17,827 nucleotides of DNA from Thermoleophilia bacterium. GTDB taxonomy: Bacteria > Actinomycetota > Thermoleophilia > RBG-16-64-13. Of this stretch, positions 1,569 through 17,827 are shown in pieces. The stretch lies in the NCBI GenBank assembly GCA_017882525.1, contig JADGPI010000211.1, positions 1 through 17,827 of the forward strand, given 5' to 3'. Within the stretch, counting starts at the first letter, position 1, and each line of letters opens with the position of its first letter. The position numbers and the translations under genes are program-made. The notes under the pieces were generated by a model. It had not been told where the DNA came from and ran no database searches. It worked only from the letters and a program-made list of their open reading frames with translations.

Positions 1569-2783
1569 CTACTTGATCACGCAGATCGCTCCCGGGGCGT
1601 AGAGTTGCAGCGCAAGACTTTCCGAGATTGTGAGCTGATATTCCAGGTCCGAGGTCGGACCGACATACCCGGCACGCAAGTCCTGCCCGACTACGATCTC
1701 CGCATATTGTTTACCCACCGCTATCAGCACGCCACCGTCGGTCAAGGCGGGGGCTTTGACCACGCCTTCGGTCACAATACTGCCGATGTGCTCCAATTCT
1801 GTCCCGTCGCTTTGCGGGTATCGGCGAAAGAGCAGATTGAACCTGTCAGGCGCAAGGGCAAGCGCATAGGGCCCGTGGAACCCAGCTCTATCGAGGGTGG
1901 TCACTGCTTCGATGATGGTATCCGCGGCCGCACCGATCTTGGTCCAAGGAGCAAGCTTCACCGTCTGCACACCTTCAGTGGTCGTCAGCCCGGCGACGCG
2001 AAGCGTGTCCGAGCCGTACAGAAGCAGCTTGTCTTCTTCCATGGCCAGATAGATAGCCGCCTCGGCGACGACACCCAGGTCCGGCTCGATCCCATTGGCC
2101 TCGAAAGCTGCCAGGTCCCTTCTTGGCAAGGTGAAGTTGGCCGCCAACTGGGCCACCGGGAACGTGGCACTCGCCGAAAATGTGATCCCGGTGTCTCCCG
2201 CGAACGTCTGATCTCTCTTCGGCAGGTGCCGCAACTCTAGGCCAAGCGGCCCCGCGACACTGACTATCCGGCGGACGCTCAATTGGCTGCGGGCCGCACC
2301 GATCACTACCTCATCGATCTTGGCCCAGACTCGGTCGCCAAAGGGAGCGTCACCGCGCTGCAGATACTTGGACATAGCCTTTTTCTCCCCTTCTTTCCGA
2401 TGTTCGTCCGGCTCTTCCGTCTCGACAGGGGACGCCGCCGCTTCCTGGGCCTCGACCCCATCACTGATTCCAGCTTCGCCGGCTCCTTCTGCCGGGCCGG
2501 AGGCCTCGCCTTCCGGGGGTTCCCAGTACGCCTCAGCCGCCTGCTCCATCTCCTCGAGCCGGTCGTAGTAGTCCGGGTATTCCTTTAGGTGCGCGAGAGC
2601 GATCTTCCCAGTAGTCTGAGGATCGTCGGCCGTGACGTTCGTCTGGGAATCGCAGAGTCCATGCTCCAACTCCACGTCCATGCCACGCCGGAATTGATCG
2701 ACCTCGAACGCCGACCAGTCGATGCCCAGGCTCTCGCCGATGGCCTGCGCCTCCTCGGCCGTAAACCTGCCTTCGCCGTCCAT
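1569..2783 (-). CDS. Family-1 encapsulin shell protein (HK97-fold, Linocin M18-like) with an in-frame N-terminal fusion. The fusion comprises a ~85-aa domain of unknown function (signature VELEHG...GKIALAHLKEYPDYYDRLEEME), a ~50-aa acidic G/A/E/P-rich linker, and then the shell domain from MSKYLQRG onward.
   Basis: The C-terminal ~268 aa align by eye to the T. maritima encapsulin (MEFLKRSFAPL...IDNRA...; GPYG~GPLG; ILGQDLSIGYE~VVGQDLRAGYV; the C-terminal hydrophobic ending). The fusion start ATG at 2783 has a GGGAGG RBS 6 nt upstream. The ORF is uninterrupted, and the N-terminal part has protein-like rather than GC-artefact composition. An internal AAGGGGAG sequence sits 9 nt upstream of the conventional shell start, M137, at 2375. 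Confidence 0.85.
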   Translation of the reverse strand: MDGEGRFTAEEAQAIGESLGIDWSAFEVDQFRRGMDVELEHGLCDSQTNVTADDPQTTGKIALAHLKEYPDYYDRLEEMEQAAEAYWEPPEGEASGPAEGAGEAGISDGVEAQEAAASPVETEEPDEHRKEGEKKAMSKYLQRGDAPFGDRVWAKIDEVVIGAARSQLSVRRIVSVAGPLGLELRHLPKRDQTFAGDTGITFSASATFPVAQLAANFTLPRRDLAAFEANGIEPDLGVVAEAAIYLAMEEDKLLLYGSDTLRVAGLTTTEGVQTVKLAPWTKIGAAADTIIEAVTTLDRAGFHGPYALALAPDRFNLLFRRYPQSDGTELEHIGSIVTEGVVKAPALTDGGVLIAVGKQYAEIVVGQDLRAGYVGPTSDLEYQLTISESLALQLYAPGAICVIK

Positions 2784-8898: not shown

Positions 8899-9627
8899 AT
8901 GGGCTCCGAAGACACAAAAGGCCGTGACCCGATCTCTCTGGAGACAGAGGCGGAAACAGCCGACCCTCCGAAGGCCCAAACGGAACGCAACAGTCGGCCC
9001 GACAAGCGAGTTTCGCTCCATACCGTCGAGCGGCTGAGCAGTTATCGGCGGATTCTGGAGGAACTCGATCATGAGGGCGTCGAGTACATCCATTCGCAGA
9101 GCCTCGCCGCCCTCGTAGGAGTCACACCCGCCCAACTGCGGCGTGATCTCGCCAGCTTTGGCACCTTCGGCAATATCTCCCGCGGCTACAACGTCTATCA
9201 GATGAGCCGGACCATTAGCCGCATCATGGGCACCGACAACGTGCAGGCGGTCGCTCTTTTCGGGGTCGGCGACTTGGGTCGGGCCTTGCTGTCGTATCGA
9301 GGCTTCGAGGAGCGAGGCTTCCAGATCGCCGTGGCTTTCGACCTCGACCAGGAGAAGATAGGACACGTCTTCGCTGGGCGTCGCTGCTATGCGCTCGCCG
9401 ATCTGGAGACGGTGGTGGCAGACTACGCCGTGCGCGTGGGAATCCTTGCGTCTAGACCTGAGGGTATCCAAGCACTCGTGGACAGGGCGGCTGCCGCGGG
9501 GGTCAGGTCGTTCTTGAACTTCGTGCCGAAGCGCGTCGCCCCTCCGCCGGGTTGTTTCGTGGAGCACATGGACATCTCGGCCAAGTTGGAGAAGCTCTCC
9601 TTTCTGAGTCGGCGGGAGGGAGAGTAG
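8899..9627 (+). CDS. rex: Redox-sensing transcriptional repressor Rex (NADH/NAD+ sensor). It has an N-terminal ~35-aa low-complexity extension, then a wHTH domain and a Rossmann-fold domain.
   Basis: Seen in the translation: a Rex-like wHTH (VERLSSYRRILEEL...LAALVGVTPAQLRRDLASFGTFGNISRGYNV), the Rossmann motif GVGDLGRAL, and the C-terminal swap-helix region. The RBS GAGGAGG lies 5 nt upstream. Confidence 0.85.
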   Translation: MGSEDTKGRDPISLETEAETADPPKAQTERNSRPDKRVSLHTVERLSSYRRILEELDHEGVEYIHSQSLAALVGVTPAQLRRDLASFGTFGNISRGYNVYQMSRTISRIMGTDNVQAVALFGVGDLGRALLSYRGFEERGFQIAVAFDLDQEKIGHVFAGRRCYALADLETVVADYAVRVGILASRPEGIQALVDRAAAAGVRSFLNFVPKRVAPPPGCFVEHMDISAKLEKLSFLSRREGE

Positions 9628-9748: not shown

Positions 9749-10186
9749 ATGACGACCAAAAAGATCCTCGTCGTGGACGACGACCGCGACCTCGTGGCGT
9801 CGATGGAGGCTTTTCTCGGAGCACGCGGCTTCGAAGTGGCCACGGCTCACAACGGCCGGGAGGCCTACGCGCGGATCGTGGAGAGCCGGCCCGACCTCAT
9901 CGTCCTCGATGTGATGATGGACTACGACGAAGAGGGTATGGTCTTTGCCAGCGCTCTGAAGACCGATGGGCCTACGCGAGACATCCCCATCATCATGGTC
10001 TCCGGCTTCAACGTCCAGAAGGAGACCAGAGAAAGGGTCATCGCCTCGCTCATGGGCCAGGATTGGCCGGCTGAGACGTTCTTCCAGAAACCGGTCCGCC
10101 TCGCCGACCTCGCCGCGCGCATCGACCTGCTGCTCGAGCGGGAGGAGGAACGGCACACGCCGTGGCCACTGGCGGAAGAGGCCTAG
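9749..10186 (+). CDS. Single-domain response regulator (a CheY-like receiver only), the first gene of the hydrogenase operon.
   Basis: Seen in the translation: the receiver signatures ILVVDDDRD, the phospho-acceptor D in LIVLDVMM, a conserved S (MVSG) and K (FQKPV). There is no output domain. The RBS GAAGGAGGAGG lies upstream. Confidence 0.8.
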   Translation: MTTKKILVVDDDRDLVASMEAFLGARGFEVATAHNGREAYARIVESRPDLIVLDVMMDYDEEGMVFASALKTDGPTRDIPIIMVSGFNVQKETRERVIASLMGQDWPAETFFQKPVRLADLAARIDLLLEREEERHTPWPLAEEA

Positions 10187-10692
10187 CCGTGAGCTCCGTC
10201 GCCGAGATCATCAGGGAACGCGGCCTCGCAGAGCGAGGCGAGTTTGCAACCGACCAGTTGATCCCCCTGCTTCAGGAGATACAGGCGCGGGAGGGTCACG
10301 TTTCTGAGAAGGCGATGAGCGCTCTCGCGGCCGCGCTCGACACCTCTGTCGCGCGGGTGTACGGAGTGGCGACCTTCTACAACCAATTCCGCTTCGCGCC
10401 TTTGGGCGAGCATGTCATCGAGATCTGCCGGGGAACGGCGTGCCATGTCAAACAGAGCCTGGCTCTGGCACAGCACCTCAAGCGGCGGCTCAAGCTGCGC
10501 GAGGACGGCAACTCCTCCGACGGTCGTTTCACCGTCCTCAGCGTTGCCTGCTTGGGGGCCTGCTCGATCGCTCCGGTCTTGAAGCTGGACGGCGAGTTCT
10601 ACGGCCATCTCACGCTGGAGAAACTCGACGAACTGCTGGACAACGCCGGAAGCCCGCTCCAGGTCGCTCCACAGGAAGTGAGCTTGTCATGA
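10162..10692 (+). CDS. NuoE/HndA/HydC-like thioredoxin-fold [2Fe-2S] subunit of an NAD(P)H-linked multimeric hydrogenase.
   Basis: Seen in the translation: CRGTAC (Cx4C) and CLGACSIAP (Cx3C), the 2Fe-2S motifs typical of the NuoE family. The start is either ATG 10162, which overlaps the upstream gene by 25 nt, or the in-frame GTG 10189 just after its stop. The stop overlaps the next start (ATGA at 10689-10692). Confidence 0.8.
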   Translation: MATGGRGLAVSSVAEIIRERGLAERGEFATDQLIPLLQEIQAREGHVSEKAMSALAAALDTSVARVYGVATFYNQFRFAPLGEHVIEICRGTACHVKQSLALAQHLKRRLKLREDGNSSDGRFTVLSVACLGACSIAPVLKLDGEFYGHLTLEKLDELLDNAGSPLQVAPQEVSLS

Positions 10693-12704
10693 CCGAGAGC
10701 ACGCTTGTCGTCCCTTGCTGCTCCCGCTGCACCCACACCCTCAGTAACCCTTGCAGGGACCTGGTCTACTGCATCCAGAACGGTCCGGCATGCCACCAGT
10801 CCCCGGAGTGTTCGGAGGAGCGCGGGAAACGGCGCGCGCGCGTGCTCCGCGGCGGCGAAGACATCGTCCTCTACGTGGGTGCCGGCACATGTGGTCTGGC
10901 CAACGGCGCCGCTCGGGTCATCGAGAGATCTCGAGAATACTTTGCGGCGCGCTCCCTACCGGTGTCTGTGGTGGCAGTCGGCTGCGTGGGCTATTGCCAG
11001 CGCGAAGTGTTCGTCGACATGCGAGGCCGGGATGGAGTCCGCCTCTCCTATTGCGACCTGGGCCCGGACACCGTCGCCGAGTTCCTCGAGAGCGTCTTCG
11101 AGCGCGGCGAACTGCGCAACCGGTTCCTTTACGGTCGGTACCCGGACCCGTCGAGTGCTGCCGGGGCAGGCAGCCCCAGCTACGAGGACATCCCACTCAT
11201 CGGGGAAACACCGTTCTTCGAGCGCCAGACCCGTGTGGTACTCCAGAACTGCGGCGTCATAGATCCCGGGTCTGTGGACGCGGCCCTCGCTGCCGGCGGC
11301 TTCTCCTCCGCCGTACGGGCGCTCACTACCATGACCCGCGAAGAGGTGTGCCACACAGTACTTGCCTCCGGACTTCGGGGCCGGGGCGGGGCGGGCTTCC
11401 TCACCGGGCGGAAGTGGAAGATCGCATTGGAAACCCCGCGCGCTCAGAAGTACCTCATCTGCAACGCCGACGAGGGTGACCCCGGAGCGTTCATGGACCG
11501 CGCGGTGCTCGAGAGCGACCCGTTTCGGGTGCTCGAAGGCATGCTGATCGCAGCGTATGCGATCGGCGCGAGCAAAGGTTACGTGTACTGCCGGGCCGAG
11601 TACCCGCTCGCGATCGAACGCCTGCAGGATGCCATAGACCAGTGCCGCCGGGCCGGCTTCCTGGGCACCAACATCTTCGGAAGCCTCGTCGACTTCGACA
11701 TCAGTATCAAACAAGGCGCCGGGGCATTCGTCTGCGGTGAGGAGACGGCCATCCTAGCCAGCATCGAAGGGGGCAGGGGCACGCCCCGTCCTCGGCCGCC
11801 GTACCCGGCTGTGAGCGGCCTCCATGGCAAGCCGACCGTGCTCAACAACGTCGAGACCCTGGCGAACGTCCCGGAGATCCTACGCCGCGGGGCAGAGTGG
11901 TTCCGCGACCTGGGCTTGGGTGACGCGGCCGGCACCAAGGTCTTCGCCCTGAGCGGCCAGGTGCGGAACACCGGCCTGGTAGAGGTGCCGGTGGGCATCC
12001 CGTTGCGCGAGATAGTATGCGCGATCGGCGGCGGCGCTCCTGAAGGGCACCGGCTGAAAGCGGTCCAGATCGGCGGACCGAGCGGCGGCTGCATCCCCGA
12101 GCACCTGCTGGACGTGGCCACCGACTACGGTAAACTGCAGGAACTCGGCGCCATGATGGGCTCCGGGGGCATGGTCGTGATGGACGAGCGGACCTGCATG
12201 GTCGACGTGGCCAAGTACTTCATGGAGTTCATCCGCAACGAGTCGTGCGGCAAATGCACCCCGTGTCGGGAAGGCACCACACGCATGCACGAGATTCTCG
12301 TGGCCCTCACTGAGCGGCCGGTGGGAGAAGAGATCCGCCAGCTCGAGCGCTTCCGCGGTCTCCTCCACCTTGAAGAACTCGCGGATACCATCAAGGACAC
12401 CTCGCTGTGCGGGCTCGGACAGTCCGCCGCCAACCCCGTCCTTTCGACGCTCCGGTTCTTTCGCGACGAGTACGAGGCCCACATCATGGAGAACGTCTGT
12501 CCCGCCGGCGTCTGCCAGGGCCTCCGAACGTACAGCATCGACACCTCGATGTGCACGGGCTGCACACAGTGCCGCAAGAGTTGTCCCAGCGGCGCCATCG
12601 TCGGGGAACGCAAGAAGGTCCACTACATCGTCGTCGACCGTTGCGTCGGCTGCGGGGCCTGCGCCGACGCCTGCCCCAAGCAGGCCGTCGCAGCGGTGGC
12701 TTGA
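10689..12704 (+). CDS. NuoF/HndC/HydB-like flavoprotein subunit (NADH-binding, FMN, [4Fe-4S]). It has an N-terminal thioredoxin-like domain, two C-terminal [4Fe-4S] ferredoxin domains, and an unusual ~45-aa Cys-rich N-terminal extension.
   Basis: Seen in the translation: the NuoF signatures RGGAGFLTG and ESCGKCTPCREG; the C-terminal CTGCTQCRKSCP and CVGCGACADACP; and the N-terminal segment PCCSRCTHTLSNPCRDLVYCIQNGPACHQSPEC. The ATG start at 10689 is coupled (ATGA) to the upstream stop. The upstream part of the 10440 ORF overlaps the previous gene and is not used. Confidence 0.85.
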   Translation: MTESTLVVPCCSRCTHTLSNPCRDLVYCIQNGPACHQSPECSEERGKRRARVLRGGEDIVLYVGAGTCGLANGAARVIERSREYFAARSLPVSVVAVGCVGYCQREVFVDMRGRDGVRLSYCDLGPDTVAEFLESVFERGELRNRFLYGRYPDPSSAAGAGSPSYEDIPLIGETPFFERQTRVVLQNCGVIDPGSVDAALAAGGFSSAVRALTTMTREEVCHTVLASGLRGRGGAGFLTGRKWKIALETPRAQKYLICNADEGDPGAFMDRAVLESDPFRVLEGMLIAAYAIGASKGYVYCRAEYPLAIERLQDAIDQCRRAGFLGTNIFGSLVDFDISIKQGAGAFVCGEETAILASIEGGRGTPRPRPPYPAVSGLHGKPTVLNNVETLANVPEILRRGAEWFRDLGLGDAAGTKVFALSGQVRNTGLVEVPVGIPLREIVCAIGGGAPEGHRLKAVQIGGPSGGCIPEHLLDVATDYGKLQELGAMMGSGGMVVMDERTCMVDVAKYFMEFIRNESCGKCTPCREGTTRMHEILVALTERPVGEEIRQLERFRGLLHLEELADTIKDTSLCGLGQSAANPVLSTLRFFRDEYEAHIMENVCPAGVCQGLRTYSIDTSMCTGCTQCRKSCPSGAIVGERKKVHYIVVDRCVGCGACADACPKQAVAAVA

Positions 12705-12714
12705 AAGGTCTGCC

Positions 12715-14565
12715 ATGAACGTCACGATCAACGACAAGAAGCTGCGATCCGCTCCCGGCGAGACGGTGCTCCAAGTGGCCCGCAGGGCCGGCATCAACAT
12801 CCCACATCTGTGCTCGCTCGACTGGGCCCCGTCACCCTCGGCCTCCTGCCGCCTCTGCGTGGTGGAAGTCGAGGGTATGTCCAGGCTCCAGACCAGCTGC
12901 ACCCTGCCCGCGACGGAAGGCATGGTGGTCCGCACCCACACGCCGCGCGTCCTCAAGGCGCGCCGGGCCATCGTGGAGTTGCTCGTGGCCAACCATCCGC
13001 AGGACTGCCTCACCTGTTCGCGATCCGGCAAATGCGAACTGGCCGACTTGGCCGGTGACCTCGGCGTGCGGCAGCGGCGGTACGCAGGAGTCAAGAAAGA
13101 CCAACCTATCGACATCTCTTCGCCGGCGATCTGGCGAGATCCTAACAAATGCGTGCTCTGCGGACGCTGTGTGACCATGTGCCAGCACGTCCAGGGAGTG
13201 GGAGCGATCGATTTTACCGGGCGAGGCTTCCGCACTCAGGTCGCTCCTGGTTTTTACGCGGGGCTCAACGTCTCGGGGTGCGTATACTGCGGTCAATGCG
13301 TGCGGGTCTGCCCCACCGGGGCGCTCGTCGAACGGAGCCACGTCGACGCGGTCGTGGCAGAGCTTGGCGATCCAAACACAGTGGTGGTGGCGCAGATAGC
13401 GCCGGCAGTGCCGGCCACTCTCCTGAAAGGCCACAGCAAACGGCAAGACGTCCACTCGACCCTCGAGCGGCTGGCGGCAGCGCTCAAACATGTCGGCTTC
13501 ACCGCGATCTTCGATACCTGTTTCGCTGCCGACCTGACCATCATGGAAGAGGCCACCGAGCTTCTCCAGCGGGTCCAAAAGGGCGGCGTCCTCCCGATGT
13601 TCACGAGCTGCTCTCCGGCCTGGGTCCAATTCGTGGAAACGCACCGGCCCGACCTCATCCCCCACCTCTCCACGTGCAAGTCGCCCCAGCAGATGGCGGG
13701 CGCCCTGATCAAAGAGCTTTACCCAGGCTATGCCGGACTCGACGGCAAGCGACTGGTAGTCGTGTCTCTCATGCCCTGCACGGCCAAGAAGTTCGAGGCA
13801 CAGGACCAAGGAGACGTCGATTACGTGCTCACCACCCGCGAACTGGACGCGCTGTGGGATCGTTTCGGCATCGACTTCGCTGCATTCGAAGAACAAACGC
13901 CTCTCGACCCGCCGTTTTCGGAAGCCACCGGCGCCGGTCGCCTTTTCGGCGGCAGTGGCGGGGTGATGGAAGCGGCCGTGCGAACAGCGGCCACCCTGGT
14001 GGGAGGTGACGCCGCGACGATGGAGTTGACGACCGAGGCTCGAGGTCTCGACGGCGTCAAGTGCTTCACCGTTGAGCTCGGCGGGACCACCCTGAAACTG
14101 GGCGTAATCAACGGCCTTGGCCGGCTGCGCCCGGCCCTGGACGAAGTGTTGTCGGATCTTCATTTCGTGGAAGTCATGTCCTGTCCCGGAGGGTGCGTGG
14201 GCGGCGGCGGCCAACCGTATGGCAGCGAGATCGAGGACGTGCGCAAAAGGCAGGGAAATCTCTACCAAGCCGACCTGCGTTCGGACGCCCGCGGCTCCCA
14301 CGAGAACGCCGGTGTGGCTGCCCTCTACCAGGACCTTCTGGGCCGTCCGCTCAGTGAAGTGTCGCATCACCTGCTGCACCGCGAGTACGCGGACCGAAGT
14401 GGCGGTAACGGCGATGATGCCCCCCTTTCGGCAGTGAGCGGCGCCGCGCACCATGCGGCCGACGCGGCCGCTCCGCGCGCGGCCGCAGCCCAGGCGCCCG
14501 TCCGCGAAGCCCCTTCGCTCGCAGCCGTCGGCGCGGCCGCGGCGGCCGCCGGCAGGGAAGACTGA
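12715..14565 (+). CDS. hydA: [FeFe]-hydrogenase large subunit HydA, with M3-type architecture. It has a plant-type [2Fe-2S] domain, a His-ligated [4Fe-4S], two [4Fe-4S] ferredoxin domains and the H-cluster domain, followed by an Ala-rich C-terminal tail. Its L1 motif deviates from canonical, reading TSCSPAW.
   Basis: Seen in the translation: HPQDCLTCSRSGKC (Hx3Cx2Cx5C); CVLCGRCVTMC and CVYCGQCVRVCP; the H-cluster motifs L2 MPCTAKKFE (13771-13797) and L3 EVMSCPGGCVGGGGQP (14171-14218); and L1 FTSCSPAW (13603-13623) instead of TSCCPxW. The start is ATG 12715, 10 nt after the hydB stop. The upstream part of the 12370 ORF is a GC-frame artefact. Confidence 0.85.
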   Translation: MNVTINDKKLRSAPGETVLQVARRAGINIPHLCSLDWAPSPSASCRLCVVEVEGMSRLQTSCTLPATEGMVVRTHTPRVLKARRAIVELLVANHPQDCLTCSRSGKCELADLAGDLGVRQRRYAGVKKDQPIDISSPAIWRDPNKCVLCGRCVTMCQHVQGVGAIDFTGRGFRTQVAPGFYAGLNVSGCVYCGQCVRVCPTGALVERSHVDAVVAELGDPNTVVVAQIAPAVPATLLKGHSKRQDVHSTLERLAAALKHVGFTAIFDTCFAADLTIMEEATELLQRVQKGGVLPMFTSCSPAWVQFVETHRPDLIPHLSTCKSPQQMAGALIKELYPGYAGLDGKRLVVVSLMPCTAKKFEAQDQGDVDYVLTTRELDALWDRFGIDFAAFEEQTPLDPPFSEATGAGRLFGGSGGVMEAAVRTAATLVGGDAATMELTTEARGLDGVKCFTVELGGTTLKLGVINGLGRLRPALDEVLSDLHFVEVMSCPGGCVGGGGQPYGSEIEDVRKRQGNLYQADLRSDARGSHENAGVAALYQDLLGRPLSEVSHHLLHREYADRSGGNGDDAPLSAVSGAAHHAADAAAPRAAAAQAPVREAPSLAAVGAAAAAAGRED

Positions 14566-14572
14566 GGGCCCC

Positions 14573-16696
14573 GTGGACGGCATCATCACAACCATCAAAC
14601 AGAACTGCCGCCGCTGCTTCACGTGCGTGCGCGACTGCCCGGCCAAAGCGATCCGCATCGAGGATGGCCAGGCTTCAGTGGTGACCGAACGCTGCATCGG
14701 GTGCGGCAACTGCACCATCGTCTGCTCGCAGAACGCCAAAGCGTATCTCGACAGCACCGAACGTGCGTTCTGGCTGCTCGACCGGGGCGGCACGGTCGCG
14801 GCTCTCCTGGCCCCGTCGTTTCCCGCAGGCTTCTCCGCGCCGCCCGCGCAAGTCGTCGGAGCTCTTCGGAAAGTGGGCTTCGCGTATGTGGTGGAAGTCG
14901 CATATGGCGCGGAACTCGTGAATCAGGCCTACCGCGACTACCTTGGCGAGCACCCGACAGGCGTCCACATTGCAACCGCGTGCACCGCGGTGGTCGAATA
15001 CGTGCGGAAATACCGCCCCCAACTCACCGAGCGACTCATTCCCATCGTCTCTCCCATGGTGGCGACGGCCCTTGCCGTGAAAGCTCGGTATGGCCAGCAC
15101 GTCCGCTGTGTGTTCATTGGGCCTTGCGTGGCGAAAAAAGGTGAGGCACGGTACCCCGGAGTTGTGGGAGTCGTGGATGAAGTCCTCACGCTGACCGAGG
15201 CGACGACCGTGCTCACCGCGCGCGGCATCGACCCGGCGCAAACCCCCGCCAGCGACTTCGACCCCCCGTTCGCGGGAGAAGCCCGTGTCTTTCCGATCCC
15301 CGGAGGAATGCTGGAAAGCGCCCGATTGGGCGGCGGGATCCTCGACCCGGAGCTGATCGTGGTAAGCGGTCACGACGAGACCATCCAGGCCCTTGACGCG
15401 CTCCCCGAGGGTGAGACCGACAAGGCATTGCTGGTGGAAGCCCTCATGTGCAACGGCTGCTATTGCGGACCAGGGGTGCAGACCCTGGAGCCGGCCGTGA
15501 TGCGCAAGCGCCGGGTGATCGAGTTCGCGGCCGACAGCCTTCGCCGGCAGGGATCCGGAGAGCTGCCTGCCTGCGATGAGACGGATACCTCTCTTTGGCT
15601 CGGTCGTGAGTACACCTCCGACGACCGGCGGTACGACCAGCCGAGTGAAGAGAAGATCCGGGAGATCCTGGCCCGCACCAACAAGTTCTTCCCCGAAGAC
15701 GAGCTCAACTGCGGAGCCTGCGGATACCCCACCTGCCGCGCCAAGGCCACCGCGGTGGTGAGCGGCATGGCGGAGGAAGCCATGTGCCTGCCGTTCATGA
15801 TCGAGCAGGCCGAGCGGGTCTGCCACGAGCTTCGCGTGCCGTGGAAAGACCTGCGTGAAGTGCACCGCCACCTCATCAACACCGAGAAGCTGGCTTCGAT
15901 GGGGCAGATGGCGGCCGGCGTCGCCCACGAGTTGAACAACCCACTCAGCAGCATCCTGCTCTACTCCCACATCCTGGGGCGCAAGCTCGAGGACCGGCCC
16001 GACCTGAGCCACGACCTCAAGCTCGTCGCCGACGAGTCGGAGCGCTGCAAGAAGATCATCGGCAACCTACTCGACTTCGCCCGGCAAACCCGGGTGCACA
16101 TCGAAGCGGTCTCGATCGATGAACTCGTTCGCTCGGCCGTGGACGCGGCCGCATGCAACTTGAGCCCCGGCCCTGGCGGGGCAACCGCGGGCGGCGCCGG
16201 GCGGAACGGCGCGGGGCCGCATGGACCGCGCTCTGGCGGTGGGGTGGAGCTCACACTCGAAGTGACCCCTGGGCTGCAGGCCGACCTGGACCGCGATCAG
16301 ATGACGCAGGTTCTAGTCAACCTCCTCAAGAACGGAGTCGAGGCCATGGAGGGCCGCACCGGCGTCGTGAAACTGTCGGCATATGAGATTCCCGAGCAGC
16401 ATCGGGTCCACTTCGCGGTCAGCGACCAAGGGTGCGGCATCCCAGGCGGCGCTCAGGACAAGGTGTTCCAGCCGTTCTTCACCACCAAGAGCATCGGCAA
16501 GGGAACAGGCCTTGGTCTTCCGATCTCGTACGGCATCGTGAAGATGCACGGCGGCACCATCTGGTTCGAGTCCCAACCCGATCAAGGCACCACTTTCCAC
16601 GTGGAGATCCCCATAACCCATGCGGCCGGTGAGAAGCCCATGACGACAGAGAAGCCCTTCTTACCGAACCAACCTCCCAAGGAGTATGTGATATGA
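14573..16696 (+). CDS. Sensory-type (HydS-like, group C-like) [FeFe]-hydrogenase domain fused to a histidine-kinase transmitter. The order is two [4Fe-4S] ferredoxin domains, a divergent H-cluster domain, a Cx2Cx4Cx16C motif, then HisKA (H-box HELNNPL) and HATPase_c. It is a putative H2-sensing histidine kinase.
   Basis: Seen in the translation: CRRCFTCVRDCP and CIGCGNCTIVC; an H-domain that aligns colinearly with the adjacent HydA (TACTAVV for L1, GPCVAKKGE for L2 and EALMCNGCYCGPG for L3); NCGACGYPTC...x16...C; AAGVAHELNNPLSSI; and the N/G boxes LLKNGVEAM, DQGCGI and GTGLGLPIS. The start is set at GTG 14573, 8 nt after the hydA stop. The ATG at 14453 would add a 40-aa P/R-rich segment overlapping hydA. 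The stop overlaps the next start (ATGA at 16693-16696). Confidence 0.8.
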   Translation: MDGIITTIKQNCRRCFTCVRDCPAKAIRIEDGQASVVTERCIGCGNCTIVCSQNAKAYLDSTERAFWLLDRGGTVAALLAPSFPAGFSAPPAQVVGALRKVGFAYVVEVAYGAELVNQAYRDYLGEHPTGVHIATACTAVVEYVRKYRPQLTERLIPIVSPMVATALAVKARYGQHVRCVFIGPCVAKKGEARYPGVVGVVDEVLTLTEATTVLTARGIDPAQTPASDFDPPFAGEARVFPIPGGMLESARLGGGILDPELIVVSGHDETIQALDALPEGETDKALLVEALMCNGCYCGPGVQTLEPAVMRKRRVIEFAADSLRRQGSGELPACDETDTSLWLGREYTSDDRRYDQPSEEKIREILARTNKFFPEDELNCGACGYPTCRAKATAVVSGMAEEAMCLPFMIEQAERVCHELRVPWKDLREVHRHLINTEKLASMGQMAAGVAHELNNPLSSILLYSHILGRKLEDRPDLSHDLKLVADESERCKKIIGNLLDFARQTRVHIEAVSIDELVRSAVDAAACNLSPGPGGATAGGAGRNGAGPHGPRSGGGVELTLEVTPGLQADLDRDQMTQVLVNLLKNGVEAMEGRTGVVKLSAYEIPEQHRVHFAVSDQGCGIPGGAQDKVFQPFFTTKSIGKGTGLGLPISYGIVKMHGGTIWFESQPDQGTTFHVEIPITHAAGEKPMTTEKPFLPNQPPKEYVI

Positions 16697-17145
16697 GCAC
16701 CGCATGGACCATCCTGTTCGTAGACGACGATCGCGATTTTCTCCAGGCTCAAGCCGCCTATTTCGGGAGCCGCGGCCACGAAGTGCTCACTGCGGCGAGC
16801 AGCAGTGAAGCCATGGAGACTTTGGATGTCACCACCCCGGACATCATCTTCTTGGACCTGATGATGGAGCGCTTCGACAGCGGCTTCCGGCTTGGCTACG
16901 AGATCCGCAAGCGCGAGCGCCTAACCGACACGCCTATCGTCATGCTGAGCGGAGTGGCCGCGGCGACCGGGGAGCGGTTCAGCGACGAGGCCGACGGCCT
17001 TCGCTCGTGGTCGCGGCTCGACCGTTTCATCGACAAACCGGTGACTGGGAAGCAACTGTTGAGCGTTGCGGAGGAGCTGCTAGGCGGCTGCGATACGCAG
17101 GGCTGCGGCTTGAACCAGTGCCGGACGCCCGGCGGCACGGCGTAG
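16693..17145 (+). CDS. Single-domain response regulator (receiver only) that is paralogous to the 9749 receiver and carries a Cys-rich C-terminal tail (CDTQGCGLNQC).
   Basis: Seen in the translation: ILFVDDDRD, IFLDLMM, MLSG and FIDKPV, which align residue by residue with the first receiver. It is translationally coupled to the kinase gene. Confidence 0.8.
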   Translation: MSTAWTILFVDDDRDFLQAQAAYFGSRGHEVLTAASSSEAMETLDVTTPDIIFLDLMMERFDSGFRLGYEIRKRERLTDTPIVMLSGVAAATGERFSDEADGLRSWSRLDRFIDKPVTGKQLLSVAEELLGGCDTQGCGLNQCRTPGGTA

Positions 17146-17166
17146 GGACGAGGCGAGGGGGAAAGA

Positions 17167-17827
17167 GTGACGACCGTGATCCCTGCCAATATCCTCGTAG
17201 TGGACGACGAGTACGGAGTCCGGACGGGCATCAGACAGATCCTCGAGCTCGAGGGCTACAACGTGGACGATTGCGACACCGGGGAGAAGGCGCTCGCGTT
17301 GCTCGAAGCCAACGACTACGATGTCGCCTTACTCGACTACCGGCTGCCCGACATCGACGGGTTGATGCTGTTACAGGCCATCAAGCGCAACGACCTGCAG
17401 CCCATGACCTGCATGATCACGGCCTACGCCAACATCGACACTGCCATCGCCGCTACCCGCCAGGGGGTGGATTTCTTCCTGCCCAAGCCATTCTCGCCCG
17501 AGGACCTTATCGGCGTGGTGCAGACGCTCGCGCGCCACAAGCAGGCCCGGGTGGAAGCCGAGCGGTTGCGCCGCGAGCACGAAGCTGGCCTCCTCGCACT
17601 CGCCGAAGAGAAGACGCAGACGCACTCACTCGTCTCCTCATTGCGGGACGCGGTGCTGGTGGTAAACCGCGAAGGCGACGTGGTACTCGCCAACCGGGCC
17701 ATGACCTCCCTGCTCGGGATCGCCGAAGACCGGGTGCTACGGCGGCCCGCCCAAGAAGTCCTTGCCCAGGGGCCGCTCGCGCCGCTGGCGGGAAAACTGG
17801 CCGCGCCAGTCAAGGATAGGACTGTGA
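17167..17827 (+). CDS. Partial CDS running off the window end: a response-regulator receiver domain followed by a PAS domain. The C-terminal output or transmitter is not visible.
   Basis: This is my own translation of the frame-1 ORF, which is absent from the supplied track because it has no stop in the window. The receiver reads VTTVIPANILVVDDEYGVRTGIRQILELEGYNVDDCDTGEKALALLEANDYDVALLDYRLPDIDGL...CMITAYANIDTAIAATRQGVDFFLPKPF, and the PAS-like segment reads LRDAVLVVNREGDVVLANRAMTSLLGI. The start is GTG 17167 or 17176, after GGGGGAAAGA. The 17007..17819 (+) ORF listed in the track is an R/G-rich artefact in another frame. Confidence 0.65.
   Translation, partial: MTTVIPANILVVDDEYGVRTGIRQILELEGYNVDDCDTGEKALALLEANDYDVALLDYRLPDIDGLMLLQAIKRNDLQPMTCMITAYANIDTAIAATRQGVDFFLPKPFSPEDLIGVVQTLARHKQARVEAERLRREHEAGLLALAEEKTQTHSLVSSLRDAVLVVNREGDVVLANRAMTSLLGIAEDRVLRRPAQEVLAQGPLAPLAGKLAAPVKDRTV

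Follow-up and report, generated by a model that had tools for sequence, protein, structure and literature searches.

Serine replaces the second cysteine of the L1 motif in the HydA subunit encoded in the window (the whole 17,827-nucleotide stretch of DNA analysed here, from an uncultured Thermoleophilia/Gaiellales-like actinobacterium), and this Ser-for-Cys ligand is a real, already published and ordinary natural variant. The enzyme is very probably a HydABC-type catalytic subunit with a widespread Ser300 ligand, for which the behaviour of an ordinary bidirectional hydrogenase is to be expected, given that the Ser enzyme of A. woodii has a normal H-cluster and normal activity. The H-cluster cubane would be held by Ser300 (via oxygen) together with Cys355, Cys490 and Cys494, while Cys299 would go on relaying protons to the azadithiolate bridge; Ser at the ligand position is itself a widespread and recurrently evolved state. 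By homology we infer that direct Ser-O-Fe ligation, normal catalysis and normal H-cluster spectra are likely in this HydA.

The hydA reading frame is intact from the ATG at 12715 to the stop codon at 14563-14565. Pfam domains Fer2_4, NADH-G_4Fe-4S_3, Fer4 dicluster, Fe_hyd_lg_C and Fe_hyd_SSU were found, corresponding to an M3-type enzyme with an N-terminal [2Fe-2S] cluster, a His-ligated [4Fe-4S] cluster and two ferredoxin-type clusters. Across an alignment of 43 clade sequences, every Cys/His ligand of the accessory clusters is invariant, which bears out the initial annotation's view that the accessory-cluster domains are complete. The C-terminal tail is Ala/Pro-rich and of low complexity. 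By both sequence and fold, HydA is closest to the HydABC structures of T. kivui, A. woodii and T. maritima. T. kivui HydA is the best PDB sequence match (8a6t, E 2e-151), followed by A. woodii HydA1 (7q4v, E 7e-142), and Foldseek ranks the two in the same order. The AlphaFold2 model used has a mean pLDDT of 64 (H-domain mostly 70-95) and is cofactor-free; it supports the fold match only and, given the moderate pLDDT and lack of cofactors, cannot show cubane ligation.

The gene order is hydC-hydB-hydA (Table 1), and both domain content and adjacent genes correspond to a HydABC system of group A3 type. HydB contains Complex1_51K, SLBB, NADH_4Fe-4S and Fer4 dicluster domains, the latter at residues 617-667, and its ATG overlaps the hydC stop codon (ATGA). 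The complex is predicted from these features to be ferredoxin/NAD(P)-coupled and electron-bifurcating or confurcating, in a group A3-like manner. The HydS-like gene that follows hydA encodes Fer4, Fe_hyd_lg_C, FeS (PF04060), HisKA and HATPase_c domains; its likely start is the GTG at 14573, an ATG at 14453 overlapping the hydA tail. A search of the window for the Rex operator TTGTGAAN6TTCACAA gave no match with up to 3 mismatches, and an Rfam scan of the window gave no match.

Table 1. Genes and H-cluster motifs located in the window (L081 and L082 are related loci described in the text).
Feature	Position	Strand	Support
rex-like redox-sensing repressor, upstream of operon	8899..9627	+	Pfam Put_DNA-bind_N + CoA_binding; position conserved in L082
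Stand-alone response-regulator receiver, between rex and hydC	9749..10186	+	Pfam Response_reg E 4e-18; same position in L082
hydC, NuoE-like thioredoxin-like [2Fe-2S] subunit	10162..10692	+	Pfam 2Fe-2S_thioredx E 1e-43
hydB, NuoF-like FMN/NAD(P) subunit, C-terminal 2x[4Fe-4S] ferredoxin domain	10689..12704	+	Pfam
hydA, M3-type [FeFe]-hydrogenase catalytic subunit, 616 aa	12715..14565	+	Pfam; PDB sequence matches; Foldseek
HydA L1 motif TSCSPAW, T297-W303	13603..13623	+	Codons read; alignments without gaps to CpI, T. kivui, A. woodii
HydA L2 motif MPCTAKKFE, M353-E361	13771..13797	+	C355 = cubane ligand; clade alignment
HydA L3 motif EVMSCPGGCVGGGGQP, E486-P501	14170..14217	+	C490 and C494 = cubane ligands
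HydS-like sensory [FeFe]-hydrogenase domain + histidine kinase, group C type	14573..16696	+	Pfam; same gene order in L081 and L082
HydS-like L1 equivalent ATACTAVV	14972..14995	+	120-homologue family alignment; syntenic loci
Response-regulator receiver downstream of HydS-like kinase	16693..17145	+	Pfam Response_reg; conserved in L081 and L082

The L1 codons ACG AGC TGC TCT CCG GCC TGG encode T297-S298-C299-S300-P301-A302-W303, and re-reading gave the same bases and residues as the initial annotation. C299 (TGC, 13609-13611) occupies the proton-relay position and S300 (TCT, 13612-13614) the [4Fe-4S]H ligand position, so the strict L1 consensus TSCCPxW is missed at the ligand Cys with the relay Cys present. 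This does not exclude HydA from catalytic group A, as the Ser deviation (CSP in place of CCP) is a documented natural variant of that group; the strict consensus is too narrow. With Ser at the CpI C300 position and the relay Cys retained, HydA agrees in sequence with the natural Ser-ligated subgroup (A. woodii HydA1-like). L2 and L3 are canonical in position and residues, as had been stated, and agree with the consensus patterns MPCxxKxxE and ExMxCxxGCxxGxGQP, both invariant in the clade. Within L2, M353, P354, C355, K358, K359 and E361 are all invariant, and both M353 and M488 (CpI M497) are present. The proton-pathway residues E279, E282, R286, C299 and S319 are found at CpI numbering in an alignment without gaps, and are invariant among the 43 clade members.

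The serine is by no means rare. It occurs in 118 of the nearest 120 homologues (117 TSCSPAW, 1 TSCSPGW), and the nearest 50%-identity cluster representatives comprise 27 CSP and 81 CCP sequences (~25% CSP). Among the HydA genes scored in the best 80 species-genome loci (n=79), 49 are CSP and 30 CCP; the CSP genes in this set span at least 8 phyla and use both TCN and AGY serine codons. A rough NJ tree contains at least 14 Cys/Ser state changes, including two reversions to Cys within the window's clade. According to Kertess 2017, ~20% of sequences have Ser here (PMC5855289). The initial annotation's view of the CC pair as otherwise invariant can thus not be maintained. Its prediction of unusual catalysis or proton transfer is likewise contradicted by A. 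woodii HydABC, whose structure (Katsyv 2023) has Ser301Aw in place of Cys299Tk as ligand of cluster A1; its FTIR bands are normal, and in activity it resembles the T. kivui enzyme with its full set of Cys ligands (PMC10021017). The Ser-O-Fe bonding in A. woodii is a modelled assignment, owing to maps of limited resolution. Within a known subgroup, TSCSP is both common and fully active, which on the initial annotation's own terms removes the case for an anomaly.

The closest characterised counterpart is A. woodii HydA1 of HydABC(D) (PDB 7Q4V, 7Q4W, 8A5E; PMC10021017), which shares the M3 architecture and HydABC operon. Its L1, TSCSPGW, likewise places a Ser (Ser301) where the ligand sits, and L2, L3 and the STCKSPQ-type loop are the same as in the window's HydA. 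It is the best PDB match for the H-domain fragment and second-best at full length, with 42% identity by full-length Foldseek and 47% over the H-domain alignment. Gly rather than Ala follows the L1 Pro, and L3 has ELMAC where HydA has EVMSC. A. woodii is a Firmicute acetogen whereas the host here is an actinobacterium, and the NJ tree suggests separate origins of the Ser state in the two. T. kivui HydA (PDB 8A6T, 8BEW), the best full-length sequence and fold match, has the same domain order and partner subunits, but its L1 is TSCCPSW with Cys299 as ligand, and Ala-Arg replaces the Cys-Lys of HydA in the STCKSPQ loop.

CpI is a monomeric, ferredoxin-dependent enzyme without HydB or HydC partners. 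HydA aligns with it (PDB 3C8Y, 4XDC) without gaps and with identical numbering from residue 253 through L2, sharing E279, E282, R286, C299, S319 and C355, and differing in S300 versus C300. Further Ser-containing HydABC-type genes are the two reported by Di Rienzi et al. 2013 for the trimeric hydrogenases of Melainabacteria ACD20, with L1 TSCSPGW; both also have an L3 Cys replaced by isoleucine, in contrast to the intact L3 of HydA (PMC3787301). The same substitution at the same position was engineered in C. reinhardtii HydA1 as C115S (PMC5855289). This variant lost most of its [4Fe-4S] cubane, took up no [2Fe] and was devoid of all activity, whereas the natural Ser enzymes are conserved and that of A. 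woodii is active. Hence, tolerance of Ser depends on context.

A rival reading is that Ser300 is an adaptive tuning device as opposed to a neutral exchange, acting in concert with changes in the second sphere, for example at the position preceding the first L3 Cys. Candidates for the tuned property are the potential of [4Fe-4S]H, the catalytic bias, maturation and the response to O2. Strong purifying selection on Ser within clades, with synonymous codon turnover among the 118 Ser-containing homologues, is consistent with such a role, as is the failure of C115S in CrHydA1, which implies a need for compensating context; furthermore, Ser or Asp at other ligand Cys positions of CrHydA1 shifts catalytic bias (PMC5855289). 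The alignment column most tied to the Ser/Cys state is S489 (CpI A498), which is A39/G19/T18/C17/S7% in CSP sequences versus A86/S13% in CCP sequences. This covariation is weak, at 0.25 bit with kinship ignored, and non-obligatory, since 39% of CSP sequences keep Ala. The similar FTIR bands and activities of the A. woodii (Ser) and T. kivui (Cys) enzymes (PMC10021017) speak against tuning, and the repeated state changes on the tree, also inside the window's clade, are as near-neutral exchange predicts. Adaptive tuning is therefore considered unlikely overall, and the specific proposal of a selected element co-evolving with S489, and perhaps other second-sphere positions, we regard as more doubtful still. 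If tuning nonetheless applied, context would account for Ser being functional in HydABC yet destroying the cluster in algal HydA1, and Ser-type enzymes would measurably differ in [4Fe-4S]H potential, catalytic bias or stability.

Two candidate compensating residues were rejected. A substitute Cys in the STCKSPQ loop (CpI A321 position) is not obligatory, being present in 23/27 CSP and 40/69 CCP representatives, with Ala found in four CSP representatives. An extra Cys before the first L3 Cys (MCC) occurs in some CSP representatives; the window has Ser here, so this residue offers no general compensation.

The initial annotation had also raised the option of a shifted register, whereby C299 ligates the cubane and the relay Cys is lost as in sensory groups, and Kertess et al. 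indeed suggest Cys114 as a possible alternative ligand in CrHydA1 C115A (PMC5855289). However, L1 aligns without gaps to all three reference enzymes, equating C299/S300 of the window with C299/C300 of CpI, C298/C299 of T. kivui and C300/S301 of A. woodii. Counting residues along these alignments gives Ser301 for A. woodii and Cys299 for T. kivui, matching the published naming (PMC10021017). In the A. woodii structure the modelled ligand is Ser301 itself; that enzyme also combines high activity with canonical FTIR bands, for which the relay is needed (PMC10021017). In addition, E279, E282, R286 and S319, invariant here, are changed in sensory enzymes (PMC10055695). A shifted register is accordingly highly improbable, and the annotation's face-value reading, with Ser replacing the second Cys of the pair (CpI C300, the [4Fe-4S]H ligand) and the relay Cys kept, holds.

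The idea that the Ser stems from a mistake in sequencing or assembly, or that hydA is decaying and non-functional, has practically no chance of being correct: a single base change (TGT to TCT) would suffice and TCT is an uncommon codon in this 64% GC sequence, but an independent metagenome contig (L081; 97.35% DNA identity over 5.9 kb) has exactly the same 21 L1 bases, Ser is found in nearly all relatives with varied codons (L082, with 88% protein identity, encodes the motif through the synonymous TGT TCG), and the reading frame, remaining motifs and cluster ligands are intact, the latter two also invariant. On this point the initial annotation, which held that the Ser was no sequencing error, was right.

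The Ser300 ligand of HydA is not shared by the neighbouring HydS-like protein. The initial annotation had attributed the same single-Cys pattern to both, but the 120-homologue alignment, in which the HydS-like family motif is I-A-T-x-C-P-A-V-V, reveals the reverse of HydA: Ala takes the place of the relay, and the single Cys lines up with the ligand. A gap placed at the Pro in the HydA versus HydS-like BLASTP alignment seems to back the initial annotation's register, and is overruled by this xCP family alignment. In the window a Thr (ACC, 14984-14986) stands where relatives have the conserved Pro following the ligand Cys, a substitution unique among the 120 homologues. The L2 equivalent is GPC, with Gly for M353, and L3 has the invariant CxGC. 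Retention of the ligating Cys, alteration of the residues equivalent to CpI C299, M353 and M497, and the C-terminal Fe-S and signalling domains place the protein with the group C sensory, histidine-kinase-linked enzymes. It shares with T. maritima HydS (group C) the ligating Cys, Ala at C299, Gly for M353 and a C-terminal four-Cys FeS domain, but is fused to HisKA/HATPase domains as opposed to a PAS domain alone (PMC10055695). In Ignavibacteria loci, a HydA with both Cys stands beside a HydS of this same xCP type; hence, the L1 states of HydA and HydS are independent, and nothing points to a single-Cys L1 ancestral to the pair.

As the Ser ligand already features in reviews, mutagenesis papers and a cryo-EM structure of an active enzyme, its occurrence here has little discovery value. 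It does illustrate that strict matching to TSCCPxW would wrongly mark a large fraction of bifurcating-type hydrogenases as atypical or inactive, among them those of many gut Firmicutes and soil Actinomycetota, and that for sensory paralogues the conserved Pro has to fix the register. Active natural Ser enzymes contrast with the dead algal C115S variant, and the many independent Cys/Ser switches could serve in a search for the permissive context.

The codons ACG AGC TGC TCT CCG GCC TGG at positions 13603-13623 translate as TSCSPAW when read in frame with the long ORF ending at 14565, exactly as the initial annotation had it. With ATG 12715 taken as the start, the catalytic [FeFe]-hydrogenase subunit HydA comprises 616 residues, and its H-cluster motif L1 reads T297-S298-C299-S300-P301-A302-W303. 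Pfam analysis reveals a full M3-type architecture, consisting of Fer2_4, the His-ligated NADH-G_4Fe-4S_3 cluster, a 4Fe-4S dicluster, Fe_hyd_lg_C and Fe_hyd_SSU. The C-terminal tail is low-complexity and Ala/Pro-rich, with an 8-residue indel relative to the related metagenome contig L081.

Genes and sequence features of the hydrogenase operon and its surroundings
Feature	Nucleotides	Residues	Remarks
encapsulin gene	1569-2783 (-)		Linocin_M18 shell protein
rex	8899-9627		first gene of the order leading to hydA
stand-alone receiver gene	9749-10186		between rex and hydC
hydC	10162-10692		NuoE-like
hydB	10689-12704		NuoF-like, with C-terminal ferredoxin domain
Cys-rich stretch of HydB	about 10713-10811		PCCSRCTHTLSNPCRDLVYCIQNGPACHQSPEC
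hydA	12715-14565 (+)		catalytic subunit
L2 of HydA		353-361	MPCTAKKFE
L3 of HydA		486-501	EVMSCPGGCVGGGGQP
S489 of HydA	14179-14181	489	within L3
HydA C-terminal tail	14398-14573		
HydS-like gene	14573-16696 (+)		next after hydA; hydrogenase domain fused to HisKA/HATPase
HydS-like L1 equivalent	14972-14995		ATACTAVV
Thr codon of that motif	14984-14986		ACC
receiver gene	16693-17145		after the HydS-like kinase
receiver-PAS-kinase gene	about 17167-17827		incomplete, continues past the window end

Alignment of HydA to the solved structures (phmmer) shows no gaps from residue 253 through L1 and L2, and the numbering coincides with that of CpI (1c4a/3c8y family), with C299 matching the relay Cys299 and S300 the ligand Cys300. 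By residue count on the alignments, the equivalent pairs are C298-C299 in T. kivui and C300-S301 in A. woodii. The remaining proton-pathway residues (E279, E282, R286 and S319) are all retained, and none of them varies among 43 clade members; the same holds for K322-S323-P324-Q325, M353 and M488. Together, the gap-free CpI alignment and the invariant proton pathway indicate that HydA keeps the proton relay cysteine and carries serine at the ligand position, in agreement with the face-value reading of a Cys-to-Ser exchange at a cluster ligand.

A sequencing error as the source of the serine, already doubted in the initial annotation, is ruled out. Among the 120 most similar proteins in a 5.8-billion-protein collection (69-98% identity), L1 is TSCSPAW in 117, TSCSPGW in one and TSCCPAW in two, i.e. 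serine in 118 of 120. L081, part of a separate ENA assembly, shares 97.35% DNA identity with positions 11958-17827 and matches all 21 L1 bases. The second related contig, L082 (88% protein identity), encodes the same peptide by different synonymous codons (ACG AGT TGT TCG CCG GCC TGG), and thus the codons drift and the serine stays.

The serine is widespread. An exhaustive HMMER scan found 27 C-S-P and 81 C-C-P motifs in L1 of the 150 best 50%-identity cluster representatives. Scoring was possible for 79 HydA genes from the 80 top species-representative genome loci (two loci yielded no motif and one held two genes); 49 of these genes have Ser (CSP) versus 30 with Cys (CCP) at the second position of the pair. 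These CSP loci derive from Thermoleophilia, Polyangia, Thermoguttaceae, Caldisericia, Fidelibacterota, Neomarinimicrobiota, Fibrobacteraceae, Lentisphaeria, Muribaculaceae and many Clostridia (e.g. Ruminococcus, Faecalibacterium, Dorea, Lachnospiraceae and the cultured Faecalicatena contorta), and employ both Ser codon families. As TCN and AGY are each one step from TGY and two steps from each other, this usage points to separate Cys-to-Ser events. Fitch parsimony on a rough neighbour-joining tree of 110 H-domains yields at least 14 Cys/Ser changes, an approximate number on a tree that is distance-based only; two CCP sequences (P0108 and P0109, 72% identical) fall inside the window's own CSP clade. 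What is robust in this tree is the recurrent Cys/Ser switching. A predicted protein of 4122 residues from the same representative search (P0121, outside the window) carries seven [FeFe]-hydrogenase H-domains, of which the first six are near-identical and lie exactly 444 residues apart; its L1 has Ala in place of Pro (TSCCASW or TSCCAGW). Either the gene model or the assembly is in error over tandem genes, or the protein is a true poly-hydrogenase.

When 189 H-domains were scanned for columns tracking the Ser/Cys state, the strongest was S489 (CpI A498), which adjoins ligand C490 and precedes the first L3 cysteine. Its weighted composition is A39/G19/T18/C17/S7% in CSP versus A86/S13% in CCP, a weak and not obligatory association (0.25 bit, kinship ignored). 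It is unlikely that Ser at position 300 has a tuning role. The STCKSPQ-loop Cys is common in CSP and CCP alike, and on these data is not a candidate substitute ligand.

The HydS-like neighbour had been taken to share the HydA pattern (TACTAVV), making a single-Cys L1 ancestral to the pair; the first claim does not hold, and nothing supports the second. BLASTP (27% identity) does pair TSCSPAW with TACT-AVV, opening a gap at Pro, but this register is overruled by an alignment of the neighbour with its 120 closest homologues, whose family motif is I-A-T-x-C-P-A-V-V (x = A, T, S, P or D); in 17 related loci, the HydS-like genes directly 3' of hydA show this motif too. With the register set by the conserved Pro, the single Cys falls at CpI C300 and the preceding Ala at the relay position, and the neighbour thus shows the opposite pattern to HydA. 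This agrees with sensory HydS proteins, for which PMC10055695 describes conserved ligating cysteines, with about 43% of the sequences having Ala at the C299 position. In Ignavibacteria loci a CCP HydA occurs alongside a SACP HydS, hence the states of the two proteins are uncoupled. In the neighbour itself Thr replaces the Pro found after the ligand Cys in all other full-length relatives of the 120-sequence alignment; this Thr is genuine in the lineage, since it is also present in the 97%-identical L081. For the HydS-like ORF, the listed ATG (14453) falls inside the HydA tail in another frame, and the start is likely GTG 14573, 7 nt beyond the stop codon of hydA, with GAGGG ahead of it.

The operon, like the identity, position and conservation of residue 300, is directly observed. 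The order rex, receiver, hydC, hydB, hydA, HydS-like kinase, receiver, receiver-PAS-kinase is common to L081 and L082, including the three flanking receiver-domain genes, whose conserved order suggests that H2/redox signals are relayed in a multi-step cascade. Although the operon is preceded by a rex-like repressor gene, the Rex operator consensus TTGTGAAN6TTCACAA has no match in the window, even with 3 mismatches. The HydB N-terminus carries a Cys-rich stretch, PCCSRCTHTLSNPCRDLVYCIQNGPACHQSPEC, ahead of the remaining protein, which may be an extra metal site. Genes upstream are unrelated to hydrogen metabolism and encode an encapsulin (with a DUF5661 domain fused to its N-terminus), an S-layer protein, a thioredoxin-reductase-like protein and an L,D-transpeptidase. 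The window has 64% G+C. Among species genomes, uncultured Actinomycetes, Gaiellales and Thermoleophilia MAGs come closest, at 70-77% protein identity.

By both sequence and fold, HydA best matches the A. woodii and T. kivui HydABC proteins, for which Katsyv et al. 2023 determined cryo-EM structures (PMC10021017). There, the place of the A1 cluster ligand Cys299 of T. kivui is taken in A. woodii by Ser301, the equivalent of S300 here. TSCSPGW was described in Melainabacteria trimeric hydrogenases (Di Rienzi et al. 2013, PMC3787301). In contrast to the HydABC enzymes, C. reinhardtii HydA1 does not tolerate serine: according to Kertess et al. 2017 (PMC5855289), who mutated every cubane ligand, C115S lost the cluster and all activity. 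The AlphaFold2 model (mean pLDDT 64, H-domain mostly 70-95) lacks cofactors, placing ligation outside its reach. By homology with A. woodii HydA1, the Ser300 oxygen would ligate one iron of [4Fe-4S]H together with Cys355, Cys490 and Cys494, Cys299 would carry protons to the azadithiolate amine, and electrons would travel through the clusters of the F-domain on their way to HydB and HydC, with normal turnover. The exchange in this HydA is thus real, correctly read and already known: rather than unusual, as first proposed, Ser at L1 is a common, fully active variant that occurs naturally in bifurcating-type HydA, and it has a precedent in a structurally solved, active enzyme.
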